DNA from: Eledone cirrhosa
Taxonomy: Eukaryota
NCBI GenBank assembly: GCA_964016885.1
Contig: OZ024745.1
Location: forward strand, 34,410,001 to 34,474,000
DNA: 64,000 bases
Reading direction: 5' to 3'
Made by a program: the position numbers and the translations under genes. This document shows positions 15,008 through 64,000 of this stretch, piece by piece. Below the pieces are notes generated by a model. It was not told where the DNA came from, made no database searches, and saw nothing but the letters and a program-made list of their open reading frames with translations. Numbering within the stretch: position 1 is the stretch's first letter; each line of letters opens with the position of its first letter.

Positions 15008-16359
15008 TTATCTCTTCCTCTTAATTTTGAGTATATTTTTTTGACCGGGCACCATCCTGGTGGCAAGGTTGTAAAAGAAAAGAAATTGTCATCCCTTCAA
15101 TCGCAAGAATGTTTTGTAAATTTTGAAGGTGCCAGCTATCGCAGCCATTTGTAGACTATGAATTAGGGAGCTGCGCTCTTTGTCCGCAAATCCAAGTTCA
15201 GTCATACTTTGGTCCAAGCGGGTTGGTATATAACCCGTAGCTCCCATAATGATGTGTATGAAGCTAAAGGTGTATCTTGGATACTGGATTTGTAAACTCT
15301 TCATCAATGGTCCGTAGCTGTCCTCCTTCTCCTGTATTTTTCTGACAACGTTTACACAAGTGGGCAGCTGATCTCCACAACAGAACACGTTTTCAATGTG
15401 TGGTCCCAAACAACAATATCAGGCCGGTTGTGCTTTAATTTGGTGGCAGTTTTTATTTTCAGGTTCCACCAGTATTCCTTAGTGCCATCTGTCTCAATAT
15501 ATTCTTCCTCGTTTGTTGTTAATTTTGTTTTCCGAAGTGCGTTCCAGATGGTTCTAGCTATCCCATCGTGTCTCATGAGGAGGTAGGGAGATGACATTCT
15601 TTCGCAGCTGGCAACAATATGGCTTACATCCTCGATCTTTGTTTTACATAGCCTACATTTATTGTCAGCTGATGGCCCTCTCCTTTTGTGCAGCAGATAT
15701 TTGGTAGGGAGTTCTTGTTCCTGTATTGCATAGAGATATCCCTCAAGGTGTGATGTCATAAACCTGTCGGAACTCCATGCCAGGCTTTTGAGTGGTTTAT
15801 CCCCTCTATGGTCTGTGTTTTACGTCTCAAGTATCCATGCACAACTTTTTCTGTAAATTGGTCAATGTTTTCATCTTATTTGAACATTGAATAGGATCTT
15901 CCGATTTCTCGGGGTGAGAGATTTATATCAGGCTTTATTCCATATCTCTCCTCCAGATCAGTCGCTATTCTAATGATATATTTTTTTTCATGCTCATAAA
16001 CCTGGGCAAGATGGTTGCCAACCTTTTTCCTCTGTTGCAGGTGTTGCTTCAGTGTTACTATCCGGGTCTCATATGATGTTAATATGGATTTTAGACCCCG
16101 GCCACCTTCCTTGCGTGAGAAGTATAGCCTATCAACATCACCATTGATGTTAAAGTTCCCAGTAACACTGAGAAGTTTGCGAGTTCTAACATGCATCTCA
16201 CTTAGTTCTTGCAATGACGAGTTCAGCAGGCCAAATGTTAGCGTTAGAATTGGCACAGTATAAGCATTGTGGGCAACGTATTTGTTGTACGCTGACAGTT
16301 CTGATGACCATATTTTCTTTACTCTTCTGAGGTATTCAGTTCTGGTTCTCTCCTTATTT
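15008..16359 (-). mobile_element. R4/Dong-like RLE non-LTR retrotransposon, family 1, 5'-truncated and frameshifted
   Basis: ORF pieces LYFSRKEGGRGL, CRLC..EDVSHIVASC..RHD and NRPDI..VVEISCP (CCHC plus restriction-like endonuclease). (TATG)n on both sides. Confidence 0.9.
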
Positions 16360-16438
16360 GTGTATGTATGTATGTATGTATGTATGTATGTATGTATGTA
16401 TGTATGTATGTATGTATGTATGTATGTATGTATGTATG

Positions 16439-18140
16439 TTCTTCTGGTTTTATAATTTCACAAAGTTTTACCAATGGAGAGAAAGTCGGTTTCTAACATA
16501 GACACAAGATTGTCTCATTGGAATTTACACAACATCAACTAGGTAGATATGTATGTATGCATGCATGTGTAGATATGGATGTTATTGTATGTGTGGATGT
16601 GGATGTTTTGAGTTGTATGTGTGCATGTGTATATGCTTTGTATCTGTACATGTGTATATGCAGTTATTAGATGCAACATTTTTGGAATGTTTTACATATT
16701 TTTACTGTTCCATTAATGGATTGTACTTGTAATTTTCTAACTAGTTGTGTTCTTTCTGTTCCTGTGAAGCCTAGCTTCTCAAGATTTGTATTGAGGCAGT
16801 TACTAACATATCCCAGTGCCCCAATAATCACAGGCATAAATCTGAAGGTGTAATCAGGGTGGAGTATCTGCAGATTTCTCATCAGTTCTGCATAAATATT
16901 CTCCTTTTCACTAACCTTTGATATTATATTGGCATCTGCTGGGCAGCTAATTTCCACTACTGTGCATGTTTTCTTCTCCCTGTCCCATATCATAATATCT
17001 GGTCTGTTATGTCTGCATTTTATTGGGGTTTTTACTGGAAAATTCCACCAGTACTCTTTCATATTATGTACATGGATGCCTTCCACATTGTTGTAGCTTT
17101 TAATGTGTTTATTATCGGGGCTATCTTTTTTACGAACTGCATTGTACAGTGTTTTGACCACTACATCATGCCTCATAGGTAGATAGTACCGCGATGACAT
17201 CTTTGGGCAGCTGCTGATGACATGGGTGATATCCTCGATGTTAGTTCTGCAGAGTCTGCACTTGTTATCACATCTAGGTGTTTTGCCTGCATCCCTATCT
17301 CTTTTGTGAATCAGGTATTTCGTGCTAATCTCCTGTTCTTGGATTGCAAAAGCGTATCCTTCAAAGTGGGAGCCAATATAGCGGTTGTTGGTCCAAGATA
17401 GACTACTTTCCTTATCTATATTACTCTCACTTTGGAGCTTCCTGGCAACATATGCATGCATGATTTTTTGCTGATAGGCATGCAGTTTATCATGCATGGA
17501 TTCACTGCGATACTGCTGAGCGACATCCCTGGGTGTGAGTTTTTGATTATCACACAGGGAATATCTCCAAGGAGTTCCTTCCCAACTCTCATGATCTTAT
17601 CTGTTTCATGCAGATAGACGTGCTCGAGAAGCGGGCTCCTACGCTTCGAGGTTCGTAGATGTTGTCAGAGAGATATGAGGCGACATTCAAATGTTGTCTG
17701 ACTGATGTTAGGCCTCTGCCTCCCTGCTTACGTTTCAAGTAAAGTCGGTCTATGTCACTGTTGATTAGGAAGTTTCCGGTATTGTTCAGTATTTTTCGAG
17801 TTCCAACATCAACTACTCGGATTTCATCTATCGTCCAATTGAGTATTCCAACGTTGGTGTTAGGACAGGCACAGCAATCACATTGTGAGCCACTGTTTTG
17901 TTTTGCGCAGAGAGTTCCGATGACCAGATCTTTCTTAATCGGGTGTAGTATTCCCTGGTTACGCGTTCTTTATTACATATACCATTATAGGATATGTTCT
18001 CATCTATCCCCAGGTATCTGTAGCAGTCCTCATCAGATATCGGTGAAACAGTTAGACCATTGATGACAATGTTGCTAGATTGGGTTGATGTTTTTCCCCG
18101 CTTTACAGTCATGTATGAGCATTTATCGTGGCCAAACTCC
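16439..18140 (-). mobile_element. R4/Dong-like RLE non-LTR retrotransposon, family 2, 5'-truncated
   Basis: 276-aa ORF 16667-17497 with CRLC/HVISSC/RHD/NRPDI/EISCP. Upstream RT C-terminal motifs MEFGHDKC and YRYLGI. ~230-nt 3' UTR. (TATG)n flanks. Confidence 0.92.
16667..17497 (-). CDS. C-terminal CCHC zinc knuckle + PD-(D/E)xK restriction-like endonuclease of a truncated retrotransposon ORF
   Basis: Open 276-aa frame with the canonical motifs. It is a fragment, not an independent gene. Confidence 0.8.
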   Translation of the reverse strand: MHDKLHAYQQKIMHAYVARKLQSESNIDKESSLSWTNNRYIGSHFEGYAFAIQEQEISTKYLIHKRDRDAGKTPRCDNKCRLCRTNIEDITHVISSCPKMSSRYYLPMRHDVVVKTLYNAVRKKDSPDNKHIKSYNNVEGIHVHNMKEYWWNFPVKTPIKCRHNRPDIMIWDREKKTCTVVEISCPADANIISKVSEKENIYAELMRNLQILHPDYTFRFMPVIIGALGYVSNCLNTNLEKLGFTGTERTQLVRKLQVQSINGTVKICKTFQKCCI

Positions 18141-21332: not shown

Positions 21333-21387
21333 ACTGCTATATATATTTCAGTGACAACCATCTTTGGCTGTGACCTCTTCAGGCAGT
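21333..21387 (-). ncRNA. Type I hammerhead ribozyme, intact core
   Basis: Minus strand reads actgc-CTGAAGA-ggtcacagcca/aaga/tggttgtcact-GAAA-tatata-TA-gcagt-AATAAA, ~50 nt before a (TA)n tract. Confidence 0.88.

Positions 21388-32766: not shown

Positions 32767-32770
<4 letters not shown>
32041..32770 (+). mobile_element. pLTR-like element: 48-bp terminal hairpin (32041-32137), CpG-richer segment, HHR, ending at (TA)n
   Basis: Hairpin aaggaattccaactttgtctg...tcctttg/aaagga...ggaattcctt; HHR at 32451-32575. Confidence 0.7.
32451..32575 (+). ncRNA. Type I hammerhead ribozyme with branched, extended stem II
   Basis: ttcca-CTGAAGA-tttataag...[two internal hairpins]...cttataat-GAAAC-aatt-GTT-tggaa. 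Confidence 0.8.
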
Positions 32771-32829
<59 letters not shown>

Positions 32830-33154
32830 GATAAATCTACCAAGAGTTTACGGTAGTGTCCAATCCGTATGAAGAACTCAATGTATTCCGGATATCATGG
32901 AAAGAAGAGATGTAATGAAAAACCACTTTCGGTGAAAGATAAACGGTATACAGAGTCAAGATAAAATATTAAACAAATAATGAATAAACAATTCCTTATA
33001 TTAAACAAAAAAAGTTCATTATTTAACGATCGTTTCTAGGGTATATATGTGTTATAATTGGTATGCATATTCAACAGATCTATGTACAAAATTATACAAA
33101 ATTATACAAATTATCAAGATTAAATATACATACCTAACACATATATACGCCGTC

Positions 33155-34201
33155 AAAAATAGATTAGAGTATATACCTTCTACTAAAAATACTGAAAGCA
33201 TACAGCATAATATTACCAACAAACACCAAATGAAAAGTACACACCTAAATGCCACCCACAATATACCCCAAAATACTAAATCTTCTAATATAAAGTATAG
33301 TAACCCTCAAAAAACTACTCATCATACAACTATAATAAATATTAATAATAAAACTCCTAATAAAAAAGATAAAACACCTAAATCTACAAATATAACTAAA
33401 AATAGTTGTGGTGAGATCATTAACATTAATCCTCCTAGTAAAAATCACGATACAACCTATAAAAATAATAAAAATAATAAACAACATAGAAACCGTAATA
33501 GACGAGTTACTTGGTATAATGCTCCTTTTAATTTACAAGTTAAGGATAATATTGCTAAAAAATTTTTTTATATCCTTGAGAAAAACTTCCCGCCAAACCA
33601 CAAATACCATCAAATCTTAAACAGGTCTACAGTTAAATTCTCATACTCTACAACAAATAACATAAAACAAAATATAAGTGCATATAATGCATATAAATGT
33701 AAGAAAACCATAAGTATACCACCAGTACATCAAATTAACCATAATATCTCCTCAAATACAGAATTAACGAAAGGATGTAACTGTAGAAACAAAGCAAACT
33801 GCCCATTAAAAGGGAATTGTCTTGTTAACAACATAGTCTATAAATGTAATGTTAAAACTAAAGATTCTATTTGCTCATATATAGGAGCTACCTCTAACAA
33901 TTTTAAGACAAGGTTTAATACCCACAAGCATAGTTTTAAAAATGCCGCACTGGCTAATACAACATCTCTAGCAGAAAAAATCAATAGTTATAAAAATAAG
34001 AATATAAAATATGATTTGACCTGGAGTGTGCTCAAAAGAGCCACCCCTTATCAAAATAATAGAAAGGAATGTAGATTATGTTCCCAAGAACTATTTGAAA
34101 TAATGAAGTCTACGGATATCTTATTAAATAAACGACAGGAATTAATTATATCGTGTAATCATAAACTAAAAAAAACATTTAAATATTATAAACCTAATTA
34201 A
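33155..34201 (+). CDS. PLE polyprotein C-terminus: post-RT region (VTWYNAPFN, TVKFSYS), CxC-x5-C linker and GIY-YIG endonuclease
   Basis: CNCRNKANCPLKGNC-LVNNIVYKC...SYIGAT..FKTRFNTH..WSVL..CRLC..LLNKRQE..SCNH, in an uninterrupted frame. The first ~36 aa of the listed ORF derive from the inverted pLTR. Confidence 0.9.
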   Translation, partial: KNRLEYIPSTKNTESIQHNITNKHQMKSTHLNATHNIPQNTKSSNIKYSNPQKTTHHTTIININNKTPNKKDKTPKSTNITKNSCGEIININPPSKNHDTTYKNNKNNKQHRNRNRRVTWYNAPFNLQVKDNIAKKFFYILEKNFPPNHKYHQILNRSTVKFSYSTTNNIKQNISAYNAYKCKKTISIPPVHQINHNISSNTELTKGCNCRNKANCPLKGNCLVNNIVYKCNVKTKDSICSYIGATSNNFKTRFNTHKHSFKNAALANTTSLAEKINSYKNKNIKYDLTWSVLKRATPYQNNRKECRLCSQELFEIMKSTDILLNKRQELIISCNHKLKKTFKYYKPN

Positions 34202-34734
34202 TAACATTATTCTAGAAATTAATTTAATTTAAATGTTAGTTAACCTATAAATTTAATTTAATTAATATTTTATTACAGATGAGAATATAAAATATTATGT
34301 AATCATAAATTGTGAAAAACCTTTAAATATTACTAATATATACTTAGTAATTTAATTTATAGATTAATTTTAATTTATTTAAACCTTTTATTATAACTCT
34401 TTTACAGATAAAATATAACAAAATAATATCGTGTATCCAATGACAGAGAAATAATTTTTAGTATTATAGACCTAATTAATATACATTTTGGAAATATATT
34501 TATTATTTGGTTTTAGTTTTAATCAACCTAAAAATTTTAATTTTAATTTGCTTAAAATTAGTATCCTTATACAGACGAATTGCAGAATGTCATGTAATCA
34601 TAGAATGGGATGTGTTTTGGATATATACCTAGTTAATATATTCTGTGCAATTTTTTGAAAAAGATATGTATATGTATATGTGTATGTGTATGTGTGTGTG
34701 TGTATGTGTATCTGTATGTATGTATATATGTGTA

Positions 34735-34771
<37 letters not shown>

Positions 34772-35399
34772 ATATGTATGTATATGTGTATGTGTATGTA
34801 TATGTATATGTATGCGTATTAATTTTGATTTCTATTTGCATATAATTATATTATGCTATTGATGAAATACAATATCTGCTTTATGTATTGTATACCTAAT
34901 TAACATATACTAATTAACATATACTATTGAAATAAATATATAATTTTTAATTTAGTTAACATATAATTTATATGCTACTACCGATGTAATACTTTATTTT
35001 ATTTTTATTTGGGTTTCTTTTCCCTATTACTAAATTCATTTCCTAATATTGATACCATAACGTTATTAACTTTAATTTAGTTATACTGTAATTAATAATC
35101 TACTACTGTTTGACTTCAAAATTCTGCTTCAAATATTATAAACCTAACTAATTTACACCTTAGAAATCAATATGTTGACTATCTTTGGTTTAGTTAACAT
35201 ATGATTAATGGTATACTTATTTATTTTGAGATGCATAGATTTTGCCTTAGTTCTTGTTTGTCGTATTTCCTAGCACTGAAAATATGTAAGAACATACATT
35301 GAATAAAGATACGGAAAATATTATATGTTTCTTGAAACATATATTTACTTTGATCCCCTTCTCCAAACCCCCCCTTTCCCCCATACTATTATCATCTGT

Positions 35400-35903
35400 A
35401 TTTGTAAGCGTCTATGTATGAATATATATGTAGGTAGGTGTCTATATAGGTTTGGGTATTTATATCTAAATATAAAAATACATATATGCGCATGCAAATA
35501 TGAATGTAAGATTGCGTGTGTATATATGAGTGTACATATGTATGTATATATATGTATATATATGCATTATATATGTATGTGTATGTGAATGTGTTGTATG
35601 TATATGTGTATGTATGTGTATATATGTGTATGTATGTGTATGCTTGTATATATAGGAATATATATATGTATATATATATATGTATATGTATATGCGTGTG
35701 TATGTATGTATGTGTATGTGTGTTGTATATATATGTATGTCTCTCTATTTATATGTTTATCTTCGTATCTATGTGATATATGTGTTGTGTGTGTGCACGT
35801 ATGCATATGTATGTGTTTGTGTGTGTTTGTATGTGTGTGTGTATATATGTGTATGTGCGCACACACACATACACATATATATATGTGAGTGTGTATATGT
35901 GTC

Positions 35904-35957
<54 letters not shown>

Positions 35958-36243
35958 GATATATATATATATATATAGGTGTCTATGTGTGAATATATGT
36001 CTTTATTCGTATGTGTGTATTTATGTATGTATATGTTTATGTGTATGTATGTATGTGTATGTATGTATGTATATATATATATATATATATGTATATGTAT
36101 ATATATATATGTATATTATTCTTTATTATTATAATATAACTTATGTGTATATGTGTATAAGTGAGGTTGTGTATGTGTATATAATATGTGTATATATAAG
36201 TGTAAAAAAATATATATATATATATGTGCATGTCTGTTTTTTA

Positions 36244-36279
<36 letters not shown>

Positions 36280-36361
36280 CGTGTGTATATATATATATAT
36301 ATATATGTGGGTGTTTGTATGTGTATTTATGGTGGTATGAGTGTGTGGATATATATATGTT

Positions 36362-36393
<32 letters not shown>

Positions 36394-36745
36394 AGTGTAT
36401 GTGTGTGTATATATATATATATGTATATATATGTATGTGTATATATATGTATATATATATATGTGTATGTATGTGTGTGTATATATATATATATCTCTAT
36501 TAATGCGTGTGTGTATGTATATACATATGCCTTTTTATTATTATTTTTATTTGTATGTCTGAGTTAGGTGAGGTTGTAGTGTTTTTTATGTATATACGCA
36601 TATATGGAAGCGTATGTATTTATATATATGAGTATAAGTAGGTGCATATGTATGTATGATTATATATCTAATTCTATGTATGAATGTACATCTATATATA
36701 TATATGTGTGTATGTAAGTTGTGTGTGTATGTATCTATATGTCTA

Positions 36746-36786
<41 letters not shown>

Positions 36787-36865
36787 CGATGTGCGTATAT
36801 GTATGTACATGTATGTACATGTATGTGTGTATGTATGTGTATGTATATTTAGATGTATGTGTATG

Positions 36866-36912
<47 letters not shown>

Positions 36913-37650
36913 ATATATATATGGATATATATCTTTATTATTTATTTTTTATATATATGTGTATGTGTGTATGTGTTGCGTGTGTGTGTGTGTGTATATA
37001 TATATCTTTATATATGTGTATGTGTATGTTCGTGTAAGTGTATGTGTGTGTATGACTGTATATGTATGTGTGTATGTGTGTATGCGTAAATATTTCTATG
37101 TGCGCGTACATGTATGTATGTGTATATATCTGTATGTGTATGTATATTATATTATATTTATTATATTTTATTGTTTTATTTTTTTATTTTTCTTAATTTA
37201 TAGATACATTTATATTAGGCAGTCTGCTCAGACAATTGAATACTGACCCCTCCCCCCCCTCCCACCTAATTTCTGTATCTTGATCTTGAAATGTGTGTGC
37301 CAGTGTTTTATGTGAGTGATTTAATATCCATGTGCTTATGATTTTATATCCACATATATAAATGTGAGTGGGGGTGTGTGTGTGTTTGTATGTTCGTGGT
37401 TATGTGTATATTTATGCATATACGCGCGTGTATGTGTGATTGTACTGATATGTGTGAGTATGAAAAAATATATTTATATGCTTGACTCCATAAGTATCAA
37501 TGCGCATCTTATCAGCGCATTTTAAGCTTACAGAGATATTAACCTTGAAATTTTGTGTTTGCATCCATCTTTTTAGTATGCGTATACAAGTTATACATAC
37601 ATTTTTGTAAAATATGTGTAAGGATTTTACATGTATATACACACACCGAA
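35400..37650. repeat. Complex low-complexity TA/TG alternating region
   Basis: ~2.2 kb of irregular tatg/tgta/tata sequence between the PLE ORF and its 3' pLTR. Confidence 0.85.
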
Positions 37651-37728
37651 CTGCTTTTAACCCTTTGTGTTTTCATTGGTCAATTTTGAACTGAAATTTT
37701 GAATTGTTGTTATTATCAATAAATATAC

Positions 37729-37883
37729 TTCATTATTTCTGAAGACGGCGTATATATGTGTTAGGTATGTATATTTAATCTTGATAATTTGTATAATTTT
37801 GTATAATTTTGTACATAGATCTGTTGAATATGCATACCAATTATAACACATATATACCCTAGAAACGATCGTTAAATAATGAA
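37729..37883 (+). ncRNA. Type I hammerhead ribozyme with ~115-nt stem II domain
   Basis: 10-bp stem I ttcattattt/aaataatgaa; CTGAAGA; stem II gtatatatgtgtta/taacacatatatac plus an inner helix ggtatgtatatttaa/ttgaatatgcatacc; GAAAC-gatc-GTT. Confidence 0.9.
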
Positions 37884-37928
37884 CTTTTTTTGTTTAATAT
37901 AAGGAATTGTTTATTCATTATTTGTTTA

Positions 37929-37973
<45 letters not shown>

Positions 37974-40449: not shown

Positions 40450-40502
40450 GTAAGTATGTATGTATACGTACATACATATATGTATACAGACGTACAGTAG
40501 CA

Positions 40503-40542
<40 letters not shown>

Positions 40543-40833
40543 TATACACATATGCATACAGGTACACATACATATATGCACGCATCAGTTTAGCCGACGT
40601 TTATTATAACGCCTGCTTTGTTCGTTTGTTTGTTAACAAATCGAACAGCCTGAATTTATCATTCCTGTGTCAGTGTTGAACAAAACGGTGACGTGGTTGC
40701 CTTAACACCGTATGGCATAAATTCAGGCTGTTCGATTTGTTGACAAACAAACGAACAAAGCAGGCGTTATAATAAACGTCGGCTAAACTGATGCGTGCAT
40801 ATATGTATGTGTACCTGTATGCATATGTGTATA

Positions 40834-40864
<31 letters not shown>

Positions 40865-40978
40865 GCATGCTACTGTACGTCTGTATACATATATGTATGT
40901 ACGTATACATACATACTTACATTTAAGTAAGTGCCATACTAAGAGTGAGAAATGAAATTTCGTTTTCATTTTTTTCAA
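40445..40978 (+). mobile_element. Family D fold-back element in (TA)n
   Basis: Arms ~40445-40658 / 40718-40925. The sense copy 40658-40975 is homologous to 61870-62160. Confidence 0.88.
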
Positions 40979-41048
<70 letters not shown>

Positions 41049-59881: not shown

Positions 59882-60063
59882 ATTTAGTATATCTACTAAC
59901 ATATGCGTACAGATGTACGCTAATGCTAGCAAATACACAGGTTATGTCATAGTACCTAGGTGGTTCAATGCAGGAGGATGCAGAACAATAATATAAAAGA
60001 CGTAAAATAAGAAAATTTAAAAAAAAATTTTTTTTAAATTAACTTACTTACTAAAATTTTCAC

Positions 60064-60173
<110 letters not shown>

Positions 60174-60290
60174 ATAATATTAATAAATGGAAACTATCCT
60201 ACTGTAGAGTGTATCTAATCTGTTATAAATAAATAAATTTGTTGAATAACCAACAAATTAAATAACTCTTTTCTTATATATATATATATA

Positions 60291-60502
60291 GTGGTAGAAG
60301 ACTGGAAGGTAATATCCATAGTGGTGGAGCACTCAGTCCATGGGACGAGTTAGGTAGAAATGGTTACACAACAGTTAGTTCACCATACCGAGAACAATTG
60401 TTCCACCTTAGCGGATCCTCAGCATGTCCATTACGAGCTGAGGATCCGCTAAGGTGAAACAATTGTTCTCCGTATGGTGAGCTAACTGTTGTGTGACCAC
60501 TT

Positions 60503-60504
<2 letters not shown>
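60291..60504 (-). mobile_element. Family A fold-back mini-element
   Basis: Arms ~60356-60423 / 60436-60504; (TA)n on both sides. Confidence 0.88.
60428..60477 (+). ncRNA. Type I hammerhead ribozyme (family A)
   Basis: ccattacgag-CTGAGGA-tccgctaaggt-GAAAC-aatt-GTT-ctccgtatgg, with a bulged extended stem I. Confidence 0.8.
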
Positions 60505-60588
<84 letters not shown>

Positions 60589-60637
60589 TATATATATATG
60601 TTTATATATATATATATATTGATATATATATATATAT

Positions 60638-60668
<31 letters not shown>

Positions 60669-60689
60669 CGATATATATATATATATAGT

Positions 60690-60840
60690 TTACTATTTTG
60701 AAAATTTGGACTGTGAACAACAATTATAATTGAGTAGCTGCTATTTGCAGTATAGCAATATAAGGTTGCACTTACCAATGAAACGGTCATAAATACCTGG
60801 ATAAAATCCTTCTCTTAATGCTTACCTGTGTTTTCTCTTT

Positions 60841-60843
<3 letters not shown>
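60690..60843 (+). mobile_element. Family E single-arm copy with degenerate long-stem-II HHR
   Basis: tattt-tgaaaa-tttgg...ccaat-GAAAC-ggtc-ata-aata; homologous to 63829-63982. Confidence 0.7.
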
Positions 60844-60918
<75 letters not shown>

Positions 60919-60960
60919 TGCACGAAGTCGAATTTTCGTCTTTTGCTGAGAATATCTATA

Positions 60961-61018
<58 letters not shown>

Positions 61019-61231
61019 AGTATGTATGTATGTATACGTACATACATATATGTATACAGACGTATATTAGTATATATATATACATACATGCACACATATA
61101 TATATATGCACGTATCGAACATTTATTATAATGCTCGGTTTGTTTGTAAACAAACAAACAAACAAACAGCCCGAATTACGCCGTACAGTTTAGGCAACCA
61201 CGTCACCTTTTTGTTCAACACTGACACAGGG

Positions 61232-61274
61232 ACGATGTACTAGTTTCAAGCTTATTAGCTATCGTCAGCATCGT
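61232..61274 (-). ncRNA. Minimal type I hammerhead ribozyme (family D, mirror copy)
   Basis: Reverse complement of 61832-61874. Confidence 0.9.
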
Positions 61275-61831
61275 ATACCTTCCTGCCAGATGGTTGAACG
61301 TCTGAAAGTATATACTTTCCTTCTGCATATTAACGTCTGAGCAGCCTAATTTGTATATCGAGTGAGTTTAGTCGACGGGCGCACCGAAAACGATAAATGG
61401 AATAGAATGAAACGAAATTTCATTTCTCACTCTTAGTACGGCACTTACTTAAATGTAAGTATGTATGTATGTATACGTACATACATATATGTATACAGAC
61501 GTACAGTAGTATGTATATACATACATGCACATATATATATATATGCACGTATCGAACATTTATTATAATGCTCGGTTTGTTTGTAAACAAACGTACTACT
61601 GTACGTCTCTATACATATATGTATGTACGTATACATACATACTTACTTACATTTAAGTAAGTGCCGTACTAAGAGTGAGAAATGAAATTTCGTTTCATTC
61701 TATTCCATTTATCGTCTTCGGTGCGCCCGGTCGACTAAACTCACTCGATATGCAAATTAGGCTGCTCAGCCGTTAATATGCATAAGGAAAGTATATACTT
61801 TCAGACGTTCAACCATCTGGCAGGAAGGTAT

Positions 61832-61874
61832 ACGATGCTGACGATAGCTAATAAGCTTGAAACTAGTACATCGT
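61832..61874 (+). ncRNA. Minimal type I hammerhead ribozyme (family D), intact
   Basis: acgatg-CTGACGA-t-agct-aata-agct-t-GAAAC-ta-GTA^catcgt; predicted cleavage after 61868. Confidence 0.92.
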
Positions 61875-62321
61875 TCCTGTGTCAGTGTTGAACAAAAAGG
61901 TGACGTGGTTGCCTAAACACTGTACGGCGTAACTCGGGCTGTTTGTTTGTTTGTTTGTTTACAAACAAACCGAGCATTATAATAAATGTTTGATACGTGC
62001 ATATATATATATGTGTGCATGTATGTATATATATATATATACATACTAATGTACGTCTGTATACATATATGTATGTACGTATACTTACATACATACTTAC
62101 ATTTAAGTAACTGCCGTACTAAAATTGAGAAATGAAATTTCGTTTCATTCTATTCCATTTATATATATATAAGTATAAAGAAGGTGCTCAAGCATAGAAA
62201 TGATGTAAACATAACTTATAAAACAGTGACGAAAAAAGAATTTGCCATAGACCGTTATAGCGTATTAAACTCCATAACTTCCAGATAGTTAATTTGTTGT
62301 GGAACTAACTATCTCTCTCTC

Positions 62322-62428
<107 letters not shown>

Positions 62429-63640
62429 GGAAATATAGATAGATAGATATGTTTCTTTATTAGCCACAGGGGCACAAAAGAAGGGGACAAATACAAAGGG
62501 GGAAGTTTACATACAATAAAAACGTGTAAAATATTATCACAAATGCAATTTAAAAATTAATCGATTTTTCCCCAATAGGGGGAGACATTACATATGGGTA
62601 ACACATACCCCCCGAAAAAAAAATGTGCAACCCTCATCTCCATGAGTACGACGAGTTTGTACTCCTTTCCTCCCCTCCTCTTTTTCCTCAACCTACAGGC
62701 TGATATAGAGAGAAGGCCCATTCACTCGGGCCATTCTCGCCACTTTCACCCACCTTTCATAAAATTTTCTGGGGTACAGCACATAGATAGATAGAGAGAG
62801 AGAGAGGGGGAGAGGGAGAGAAAGAAAGAGAAAGAGAGAGAAGGGGAGAGAGAGATAGAGAGAGTAATATATATGAGAGAGAGAAAGAGGGCAGTCGTGA
62901 ACGATAAGAAAGCAGTTCCGACCCCTGTATTTCATCTATCTACCTCTCACGGATGAACTAAGGTGATTTTAACTCAGAGCATATTCAGCAAGTATAACTA
63001 CCGAGGCATATTTATAACTCTGCAAATTATACGCCTTGTAATGTAGTAGACTGAATAATATTCCCAGACTGAAGTTTTAATGATCCAAAACCAGCGATGG
63101 ATTAGTAACATTTCATTTGTCTCAACTTTATCATTTATAAAAAAATACATTGTATGTATGTATGTATGTATGTATGTATGTATGTATGTATGTATGTATG
63201 TATGTATTAGGTGTGTATGTATAAGGTATGTATATATGTATGGACGTATGGCTGTATGCATGTATATACGTATTTATGTATGTATTTATGTTTGTATGTG
63301 TGTGAGTGTTTATTTATGTATGTATGTATGTATGTATGTGTATACGCATGGATCTAACTGTTTTTTATCTATGTATTAGTGTCTATATATGATTGTGTGC
63401 AGGTACATATATATATTTGGATGCATGCAAGTATGAATAAATGGTTCTATGTCATTCGAAACTAGATAGTTTATTGGTACTAATGAGTATGCATATATAG
63501 TCACTTGCGCTCTGATTTTATCGTATAGAAAGCCACATACAAGCACTAACAAAAACACATACACACGCGCGCATACTACAATAATTGACTGGCATTAACT
63601 ATGAATCATGATTCTATACAGCGGAAATTATACATATATG

Positions 63641-63674
<34 letters not shown>

Positions 63675-63680
<6 letters not shown>

Positions 63681-63982
63681 ATAAAAGAGAAAACACAGGT
63701 AAGCATTAAGAGAAGGATTTTATCCAGGTATTTACGACCGTTTCATTGGTAAGTGCAACCTTATATTGTTATACTGCAAATAGCAGCCACTTAATTATAA
63801 TTGTTGTTCACAGTCCAAATTATCAAAATTTTGAAAATGTGGACTGTGAACAACAACTATAATTAAGTGGCTGCTATTTGTAGTATAGCAATATAAGGTT
63901 GCACTTACCAATGAAACGGTCGTAAATACCTGGATAAAATCCTTCTCTTAATGCTTACCTGTGTTTTCTCTTTTATACTTTA
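63675..63982. mobile_element. Family E palindrome (154-bp arms, centre 63828/63829)
   Basis: Arms are reverse-complementary with several substitutions. Each contains GAAAC-ggtc-GTA-aatac, and the centre lies at the degenerate CTGANGA position. Confidence 0.88.
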
Positions 63983-64000
63983 TACTCCAAGATTGAACGG

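Follow-up and report, generated by a model that had tools for sequence, protein, structure and literature searches.

How did a non-coding, ribozyme-bearing repeat come to lie as a large fold-back inside a (TA)n tract, and what moved it there? These questions were addressed in the 64-kb stretch of DNA analysed here (the window) and in the genome from which it comes. In all likelihood, the locus is a dispersed copy, probably dead by now, of a non-LTR retrozyme family that is non-autonomous and depends for its movement in trans on Penelope-like elements (PLEs), likeliest those of the Hydra clade.

BLAST against the window aligned 61011-62105 to its own reverse complement (92.5% identity over 1113 columns), and the block contains an inverted repeat with 192-nt arms that are 97% complementary. 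Direct repeats were detected at an offset of 439 in the left arm (61450-61592 against 61011-61155) and 450 in the right arm (62041-62162 against 61591-61712), the same periods as those given in the first-pass annotation. Its description of an inverted pair of greater-than-unit arms was also correct: the block 61011-62162 consists of two head-to-head arms of about 1.3 units each (582-588 nt), with one hammerhead per arm (Table 1). Scattered substitutions and small indels distinguish the two arms, and the inner boundary of the right arm is approximate because the centre of the block is palindromic. The right arm ends in a tail of about 60 nt followed by a short (TA)n. The (TA)n setting held as well, being long on the left and limited to about six TA repeats on the right. 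The hammerhead and its mirror copy in the other arm are present at the positions described. As each arm has one hammerhead in about 1.3 units, the locus has no same-strand ribozyme pair. No tRNA was found by a search of 60000-63000 of the window. The locus itself is an ordinary copy, one among tens of thousands.

Table 1. Coordinates of the retrozyme locus in the window.
Feature	Position	Strand	Remarks
(TA)n target, left flank	60962..61015		
Left arm, about 1.3 units	61011..61592	-	Outer 3' end of the short type, unit position about 449-2; runs into (TA)n
Mirror hammerhead	61232..61274	-	Identical over 43 nt
Right arm, about 1.3 units	61575..62162	+	Outer 3' end of the long type, unit position about 59
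Full 450-nt monomer	61654..62103	+	Reference numbering, 61654 = position 1; 36% GC
Extended helix I (three more helices, interrupted by internal loops)	61806..61893	+	Brackets the hammerhead
Type I hammerhead	61832..61874	+	Predicted cut 61868/61869
3'-terminal stretch of right arm	62102..62162	+	Basis: 50 of 70 inverted pairs long plus short, none long plus long

The hammerhead comprises a 6-bp helix I (61832-37/61869-74), a core at 61838-44, a 4-bp helix II closed by a U.U pair (61845/61858) and a helix III formed by a palindromic 6-nt sequence (61862-67; 2 bp). A strict hammerhead descriptor matched exactly two sites in the window, this motif and its mirror, and had no match on either strand of 100 random first-order Markov sequences of 64 kb. 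The whole window had no Rfam match at the gathering score, and a search of 60200-62300 at E<=10 returned 115 weak matches with no hammerhead among them; the miRNA matches in this region were microsatellite hairpins below threshold and were rejected. The Rfam hammerhead comparison advised in the first-pass annotation gave a divided result, since Hammerhead_HH9 aligned to a 101-nt stretch in the canonical register (E 0.027) and scored 17.6 bits against a gathering score of 52. The motif had been called minimal, a label that misfits because its geometry (helices I, II and III of 6, 4 and 2 bp plus the U.U pair) is that of a canonical type I hammerhead; Cervera & de la Pena 2014 class such helix sizes with a short palindromic helix III as canonical (PMC4209133). 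Their min-HHR is defined by a helix II of 7-8 bp, a helix I of 4-5 bp, an unpaired base before helix II and little or no helix III (PMC4209133). As described there, the min-HHRs of metazoan PLE pLTRs share with the unit a palindromic helix III region, predicted dimer action and motif pairs on opposite strands 100-700 bp apart, but the unit differs in its canonical helices and in a motif that is highly conserved rather than hypervariable (PMC4209133).

Action as a dimer, proposed earlier for this motif, is plausible by prediction, the double-hammerhead fold of two copies having an estimated energy of -20.2 kcal/mol vs. -20.4 for the MFE structure. In the axolotl HHR_Amex2, which is reported to cleave better as a dimer, helix II likewise has a U.U pair at its base (PMC7229834). 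Eight of nine Xenopus retrozyme dimers are reported not to cleave in vitro (10.64898/2026.07.22.740005). Pairing extends beyond the motif into the extended helix I (helices 8-11), where 98.7-100% of alignment cells were paired, and this structure would hold the two ends of a cleaved monomer together.

The palindromic arrangement had been thought to yield ribozyme RNA whichever strand is transcribed. Fold prediction argues otherwise: in read-through RNA of either strand, the predicted partners of all 43 hammerhead bases lie in the other arm, and helices I and II were predicted to be free only in a transcript that starts inside the block. Because each strand carries a single ribozyme, which the fold-back is predicted to sequester, the locus is an unlikely source of circles and, by the modelled folds, is unable to release a monomer. 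One ribozyme per arm also makes it an inactive derivative under the two-ribozyme criterion of Li, Clavereau & Pollet 2026 (10.64898/2026.07.22.740005).

Several other elements of the window have a related appearance. A second retrozyme copy, subfamily B-like, lies at 40450-40983 as an inverted pair without a hammerhead, and its right arm begins at the predicted cut site. Copies of another short fold-back family occur in (TA)n at 60290-60495 and 21872 (-), with relatives at L232 and L244; this family has a compact hammerhead in which helix III is palindromic and a U.U pair sits at the helix II base, and by eye the copy at 60290-60495 has a mismatch in helix I. Hammerhead-like motifs with a palindromic helix III and a long helix II were found near (TA)n at 21382 (-), 32456 (+) and 59439 (-), and probably represent the 3' ends of other PLE families. 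A further repeat in (TA)n forms a 156-nt perfect fold-back at 63673-63984 and a solo arm at 60695-60844, and scans detected no hammerhead in either.

The family to which the locus belongs was surveyed by scanning the 3.0-Gb genome (G000) with exact patterns and reversed controls. Exact matches numbered 3,352 for the 36-nt core of the subfamily of the window copy, 16,220 for the 20 nt just 3' of the motif, 23,790 for the 31-place ribozyme core and 34,967 for the tail pattern, and every reversed control gave none. Three subfamilies were distinguished, with reference units A, B and C of 450, 484 and 424 nt, B and C being about 90% identical to A; across the family, unit length is about 420-510 nt. 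The best 40 scored candidates of the window-copy subfamily were 97-100% alike, and copies at different loci reach 99.6% identity. Solo, tandem and inverted insertions all occur, solo and 1.3-unit copies dominate, and tandem arrays of three to nine units, in which consecutive units carry hammerheads as in animal non-LTR retrozymes, are found elsewhere in the genome. The copies are tandem without LTR flanks. The monomer has a GC fraction of 0.364, its tripled unit holds no ATG ORF longer than 70 aa (the longest stop-free stretch is 78 aa), and simple patterns detected no internal Pol III B box on the sense strand. Parts of the unit are covered by just six low-depth contig pieces from run X5 (organism B) and five from run X6 (organism C), which were not taken as evidence of its range. 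The unit is thus a non-coding repeat with a conserved type I hammerhead, present in tens of thousands of dispersed copies mostly in (TA)n, and the copy-number search proposed in the first-pass annotation supported its reading of a tandem, hammerhead-bearing monomer of the animal retrozyme kind. Judged by sequence, the family corresponds to the definition of animal non-LTR retrozymes. Published descriptions of it were not found in the open literature, and it is possibly catalogued in Repbase or Dfam.

Of 260 core matches in 143 loci, eight fell below 72% identity and were dropped, and conservation was examined in the remaining 252 copies. The loci comprise the 30 best matches genome-wide and others from the first 75 Mb of C1, and were chosen via patterns that overlap or adjoin the hammerhead, a selection that inflates core conservation and the share of copies crossing the cut site. 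Common variants within the 43-nt motif were confined to the pair 61835:61871, core position 7 and loop II. The pair remained paired in 245 of 252 copies, as G.U in 106, A-U in 82, U.G in 56 and C-G in one, and was unpaired in seven. When assembly contigs were mapped onto the unit, the same four positions were the only ones inside the motif to vary at >=10%. The predicted fold of the monomer had a z of -7.16, a value due partly to microsatellite hairpins, but covariation was found in the non-microsatellite part. In an alignment of 32 hand-picked copies over unit positions 1-280, five of 68 pairs changed on both sides, four of them at the subfamily level and in three helices, with compensatory changes in the hammerhead and in two other helices. 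Cells changed on both sides numbered 39, vs. 14.8 in shuffled alignments (0/500) and 0-2 in slid controls; because this alignment also supplied the structure, and because the copies are related to one another, this corresponds to a handful of events rather than 39. The substitution pattern shows selection on the predicted RNA fold of the unit.

Insertion geometry was read from the ends of the copies. After two arms at locus edges were dropped from 243, the 3' ends of 241 arms fell at unit position 40-62 in 99 cases (mode 59; long), at 430-7 in 106 (mode 449; short) and elsewhere in 36. Thus, the 3' ends are fixed at two sites about 60 nt apart and the 5' ends are scattered. The proposed check of (TA)n flanks was positive, 164 of the 205 normal 3' ends lying in a TA-rich flank and five in (TC)n. 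Among 70 head-to-head pairs, 50 joined a long to a short end, none joined two long ends, two joined two short ends and 18 involved an end of the other kind; both arms were of one subfamily in 66 of the 70. These patterns bear on the idea that the element is a satellite or a DNA-level, MITE-like fold-back whose hammerhead is an inactive relic, to which we give hardly any credence. The fold-back shape and the internal microsatellites are what such an element would have. An RNA intermediate is indicated, however, by 3' ends that are fixed where 5' ends are ragged, by unequal arms whose ends are asymmetric, and by substitutions that are strand-specific and tolerate G.U pairs.

In PLE insertions as described by Craig et al. 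2021, the 5' end adjoins a second copy that is inverted and 5'-truncated, the tail is one-sided and the targets are microsatellites, (TA)n being the target of Hydra and Naiad PLEs (PMC8557442). The fold-back matches this geometry and is therefore an ordinary PLE product. The palindromic integration had been regarded as special; it is a known PLE form, and hammerheads paired on opposite strands had been reported in 2014 (PMC4209133). The copies resemble Hydra-clade PLEs, as characterized in PMC8557442, in being truncated at the 5' end, in occurring both in tandem and inverted, in bearing a one-sided tail, in their (TA)n target and in having a type I hammerhead with a palindromic helix III. In contrast to those PLEs, the unit lacks an RT or GIY-YIG ORF, its tail is about 60 nt vs. 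30-40 nt (PMC8557442), and its hammerhead is compact and lies about 290 nt upstream of the long 3' end. The open literature yielded no account of retrozymes whose copies have inverted arms and tails, and the words "inverted", "opposite" and "microsatellite" are absent from the main text of PMC7229834.

A PLE-type insertion raises the possibility that the unit is only the pseudo-LTR or 3' end of an autonomous PLE, all copies being 5'-truncated remnants. The insertion geometry is of PLE type, type I hammerheads are reported in PLE pLTRs (PMC4209133) and Xenopus retrozymes are described as related to pLTRs (10.64898/2026.07.22.740005). Such an owner should be seen upstream of the copies, but long copies continue 5' into further units, up to nine, and not into an ORF. 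Among 240 5' flanks, 90 had no adjoining arm, and eight pairs of these shared sequence; in one such pair, a junction with an oppositely oriented Hydra fragment has been duplicated. A further 15 loci contained 16 matches to the tail motif, all of them retrozyme copies and mostly short and 5'-truncated. The flanks of the 143 loci were searched by tblastn with one Hydra protein as the only query, so that PLEs of other clades could be missed. Hydra fragments were detected near about 20 of the 143 loci, a density similar to that of the window and not an enrichment, and none of these fragments showed the order ORF, 3' UTR, unit. The same search of the flanks found no autonomous PLE ORF (RT plus GIY-YIG) for the unit. 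Moreover, the hammerheads at the 3' ends of the Hydra families examined have a helix II of 26-116 nt and flanks unrelated to the unit. An autonomous PLE as owner is accordingly unlikely, and the free tandem arrays together with the result of the Hydra query agree with the first-pass view that the unit is more than a pLTR. The unit may still have originated from a pLTR ancestrally.

Individual loci that appeared to link the unit to a coding element were rejected. At L031, two same-strand copies 4.6 kb apart were considered as pLTRs, but the frame between them had no match to the Hydra query and resembles other retroelement fragments of the window, which argues against a PLE. Head-to-head tail motifs 7.4 kb apart at L237 proved to be unrelated short copies, and the Hydra fragments beside L129 and L036 were read as nesting, since the retrozyme occupies the (TA)n at the centre of a Hydra fold-back. 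Broken frames of an unrelated non-LTR retrotransposon were seen at 15352-17596 (-) of the window, with a weak zf-RVT match (E 0.011), and at L031:2943-5520 (-). The same head-to-head junction of retrozyme and Hydra endonuclease was observed at L041:1661-1678 and L106:4092-4109, about 2 kb apart and in inverted orientation.

For a retrozyme family moved in trans, the genome contains a candidate enzyme. In a very young Hydra-type PLE, all 150 scored matches, of 75,674 first-look candidates, were 98-100% identical; its unit is about 6.5-6.9 kb, and full copies have an open frame of 830 aa with the motifs RWR (for RWK), DKT, CxCx5C, CxxC and CxH, by comparison with the Hydra motif set given in PMC8557442. 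Pfam assigned no family to the Hydra proteins; their Atlas look-alikes carry HTH_animal, GIY-YIG and RVT_1 on minorities of members. In the two insertions with both ends visible, this PLE paired a long end with a short one within (TA)n and had a tail of about 139 nt. Hydra-clade PLEs are abundant in the genome, and very young ones, having the same target and end geometry, are likely helpers of the retrozyme. Geometry, rather than sequence, points to them, because no similarity was detected between the unit and the Hydra families sampled. In this respect the unit differs from the non-autonomous MRC1 of Chlamydomonas, which is likewise described as non-coding, multicopy head-to-tail and moved by a PLE; MRC1-type elements show similarity to their autonomous partner over the 3' end, and canonical hammerheads are reported to be missing from most Chlamys (PMC8557442).

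A 5'-truncated copy with an inverted arm of a very young Hydra-type PLE lies in the window at about 32770-37940, and has a 3' hammerhead at 37739 with a helix I of 10 bp, a helix II of 116 nt and a palindromic helix III. In a single case (L221/L222; G000:C617:50000-66000), the 5' end of a full-length Hydra copy is placed about 6 nt before the predicted cut of that copy's own hammerhead. Direct retrozyme-Hydra junctions without (TA)n were found at L115:1776-1830 and L118:1381-1390, where subfamily-B copies are fused to one other Hydra family (90.7% alike). These fusions, at two of the 143 loci, hint at template switching, and chance or later rearrangement could explain them too.

Whether the helper copies a circle or a linear RNA was approached through the positions of ends and the variants that units share. 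The ribozyme would cut at unit position 216, and the fixed 3' ends are elsewhere. The 5' ends showed no peak at the cut, with eight in the bin 211-225 and a mean of 8.0 per bin. A preference of 5' ends for the cut, suggested by window position 40658 and a few loci, was not upheld in the 241 arms, seven ends falling in 212-219 where about four were expected. The cut site was crossed by 159 of 205 arms and 86 arms exceeded 520 nt, both numbers being inflated by the selection of loci. Since these arms cross the cut, a cleaved linear monomer is excluded as their template, and a circle or an uncleaved multimer could have served.

A serious possibility, short of probable, is that the template is a linear, uncleaved, multimeric read-through RNA ending at the tail or (UA)n, with the same family and helper as in the circular model but no circle and with no role for the ribozyme in copying. 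The homogeneity of arrays would then come from earlier amplification, tandem duplication or gene conversion. Fixed 3' ends unrelated to the cut and 5' ends without a peak there are in keeping with such a template, as are the heterogeneous units of the old arrays L128 and L033. Shared variants, on the other hand, suggest repeated copying of one template. Rare variants common to one insertion numbered 42, against a null mean of 6.6 and a maximum of 17 in 200 draws; they were present in 20 of 56 multi-copy insertions, beside 269 rare variants that were unshared. A shared variant spans both arms at L129 (seven of seven copies) and L171 (eight of nine), and this extension of rare variants into the inverted arm counts against the linear template. 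The arms of the window locus have no shared rare variant by this criterion. The partner was the closest copy in only 55 of 150 tandem pairs and 25 of 85 inverted pairs, and this minority, like the unshared variants, the old arrays and the window arms, weighs against rolling-circle copying. At L130, three units of 466 nt are identical, and at L173 (G000:C1:19313000-19319500) two distinct monomers of 420 and 422 nt alternate in an ABAB array, as a heterodimeric template would predict: none of the 17 variable columns separates units 2 and 4, and four of them separate units 1 and 3. The shared variants, L130 and L173 fit rolling around monomeric and dimeric circles; duplication or conversion could produce them as well, and a two-unit block duplication can yield ABAB. 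Hammerhead and end-joining helices are conserved across subfamilies even though solo and 1.3-unit copies dominate, so that selection on cleavage or on monomer folding is needed, which again speaks against a linear template. Known animal retrozymes are also reported to be mostly circular in vivo (PMC7229834). Reverse transcription beyond one unit, proposed in the first-pass annotation, gains indirect backing from the arms that cross the cut and from the shared variants, but is not a new idea, more-than-unit copying of circles having been published (PMC4209133, PMC7229834).

In the explanation that we favour, tandem loci would be transcribed into multimers, which paired hammerheads, in a dimer fold via the palindromic helix III, would cut into monomers, and these may then be ligated to circles. 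From a nick in (TA)n, the PLE RT would prime at a fixed internal site of the RNA, away from the ribozyme cut, and its copying would run past the length of one unit. The inverted arm would arise when priming occurs again on the opposite target strand, leaving a tail on one side only, and the window locus would be a product of this kind. More tentatively, we propose that a Hydra-clade RT with no sequence kinship to the RNA primes twice, at fixed sites 60 nt apart, on a monomeric or dimeric circle and rolls around it. If this is correct, the identical units of L130, the ABAB order of L173, the both-arm variants of L129 and L171 and the switches at L115 and L118 all follow.

The family has much in common with known animal non-LTR retrozymes, as far as these are characterized in PMC7229834 and 10.64898/2026.07.22.740005: a non-coding tandem unit of a few hundred bases with a GC content below 50%, one type I hammerhead per unit, strong self-pairing, dispersed monomers, dimers and multimers, and coexistence with PLEs. 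At about 420-510 nt, its units sit at the top of, or beyond, the 150-450 nt given by Cervera & de la Pena 2020 (PMC7229834) but lie within the 51-972 nt of 10.64898/2026.07.22.740005. The U.U pair shared with HHR_Amex2 (PMC7229834) is a further likeness. Compared with animal retrozymes for which expression or cleavage is reported, this family is known from sequence; it is real, large and well conserved, and we infer that it is active.

Mobilisation of animal retrozymes by PLEs via circular RNAs has been a hypothesis (PMC7229834; 10.64898/2026.07.22.740005) that, as presented there, rests on co-occurrence, shared ribozymes and pLTR phylogeny. The retrozyme family adds evidence from insertion sites, namely the PLE signature on a purely non-coding ribozyme RNA in many copies, and these copies also carry signs of repeated copying of one template. 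The insertion marks support the standing idea that ribozyme RNAs hitch-hike on Penelope-like retrotransposons. An in vitro system for PLE transposition has been named as the next need (PMC8557442), and this genome, which offers both a small structured RNA as substrate and a young enzyme candidate, would make PLE transposition testable in vitro. If the proposed mechanism is correct, a 450-nt RNA and an 830-aa Hydra frame would be a ready minimal system for the origin of the tandem, inverted and tailed insertions of PLEs.
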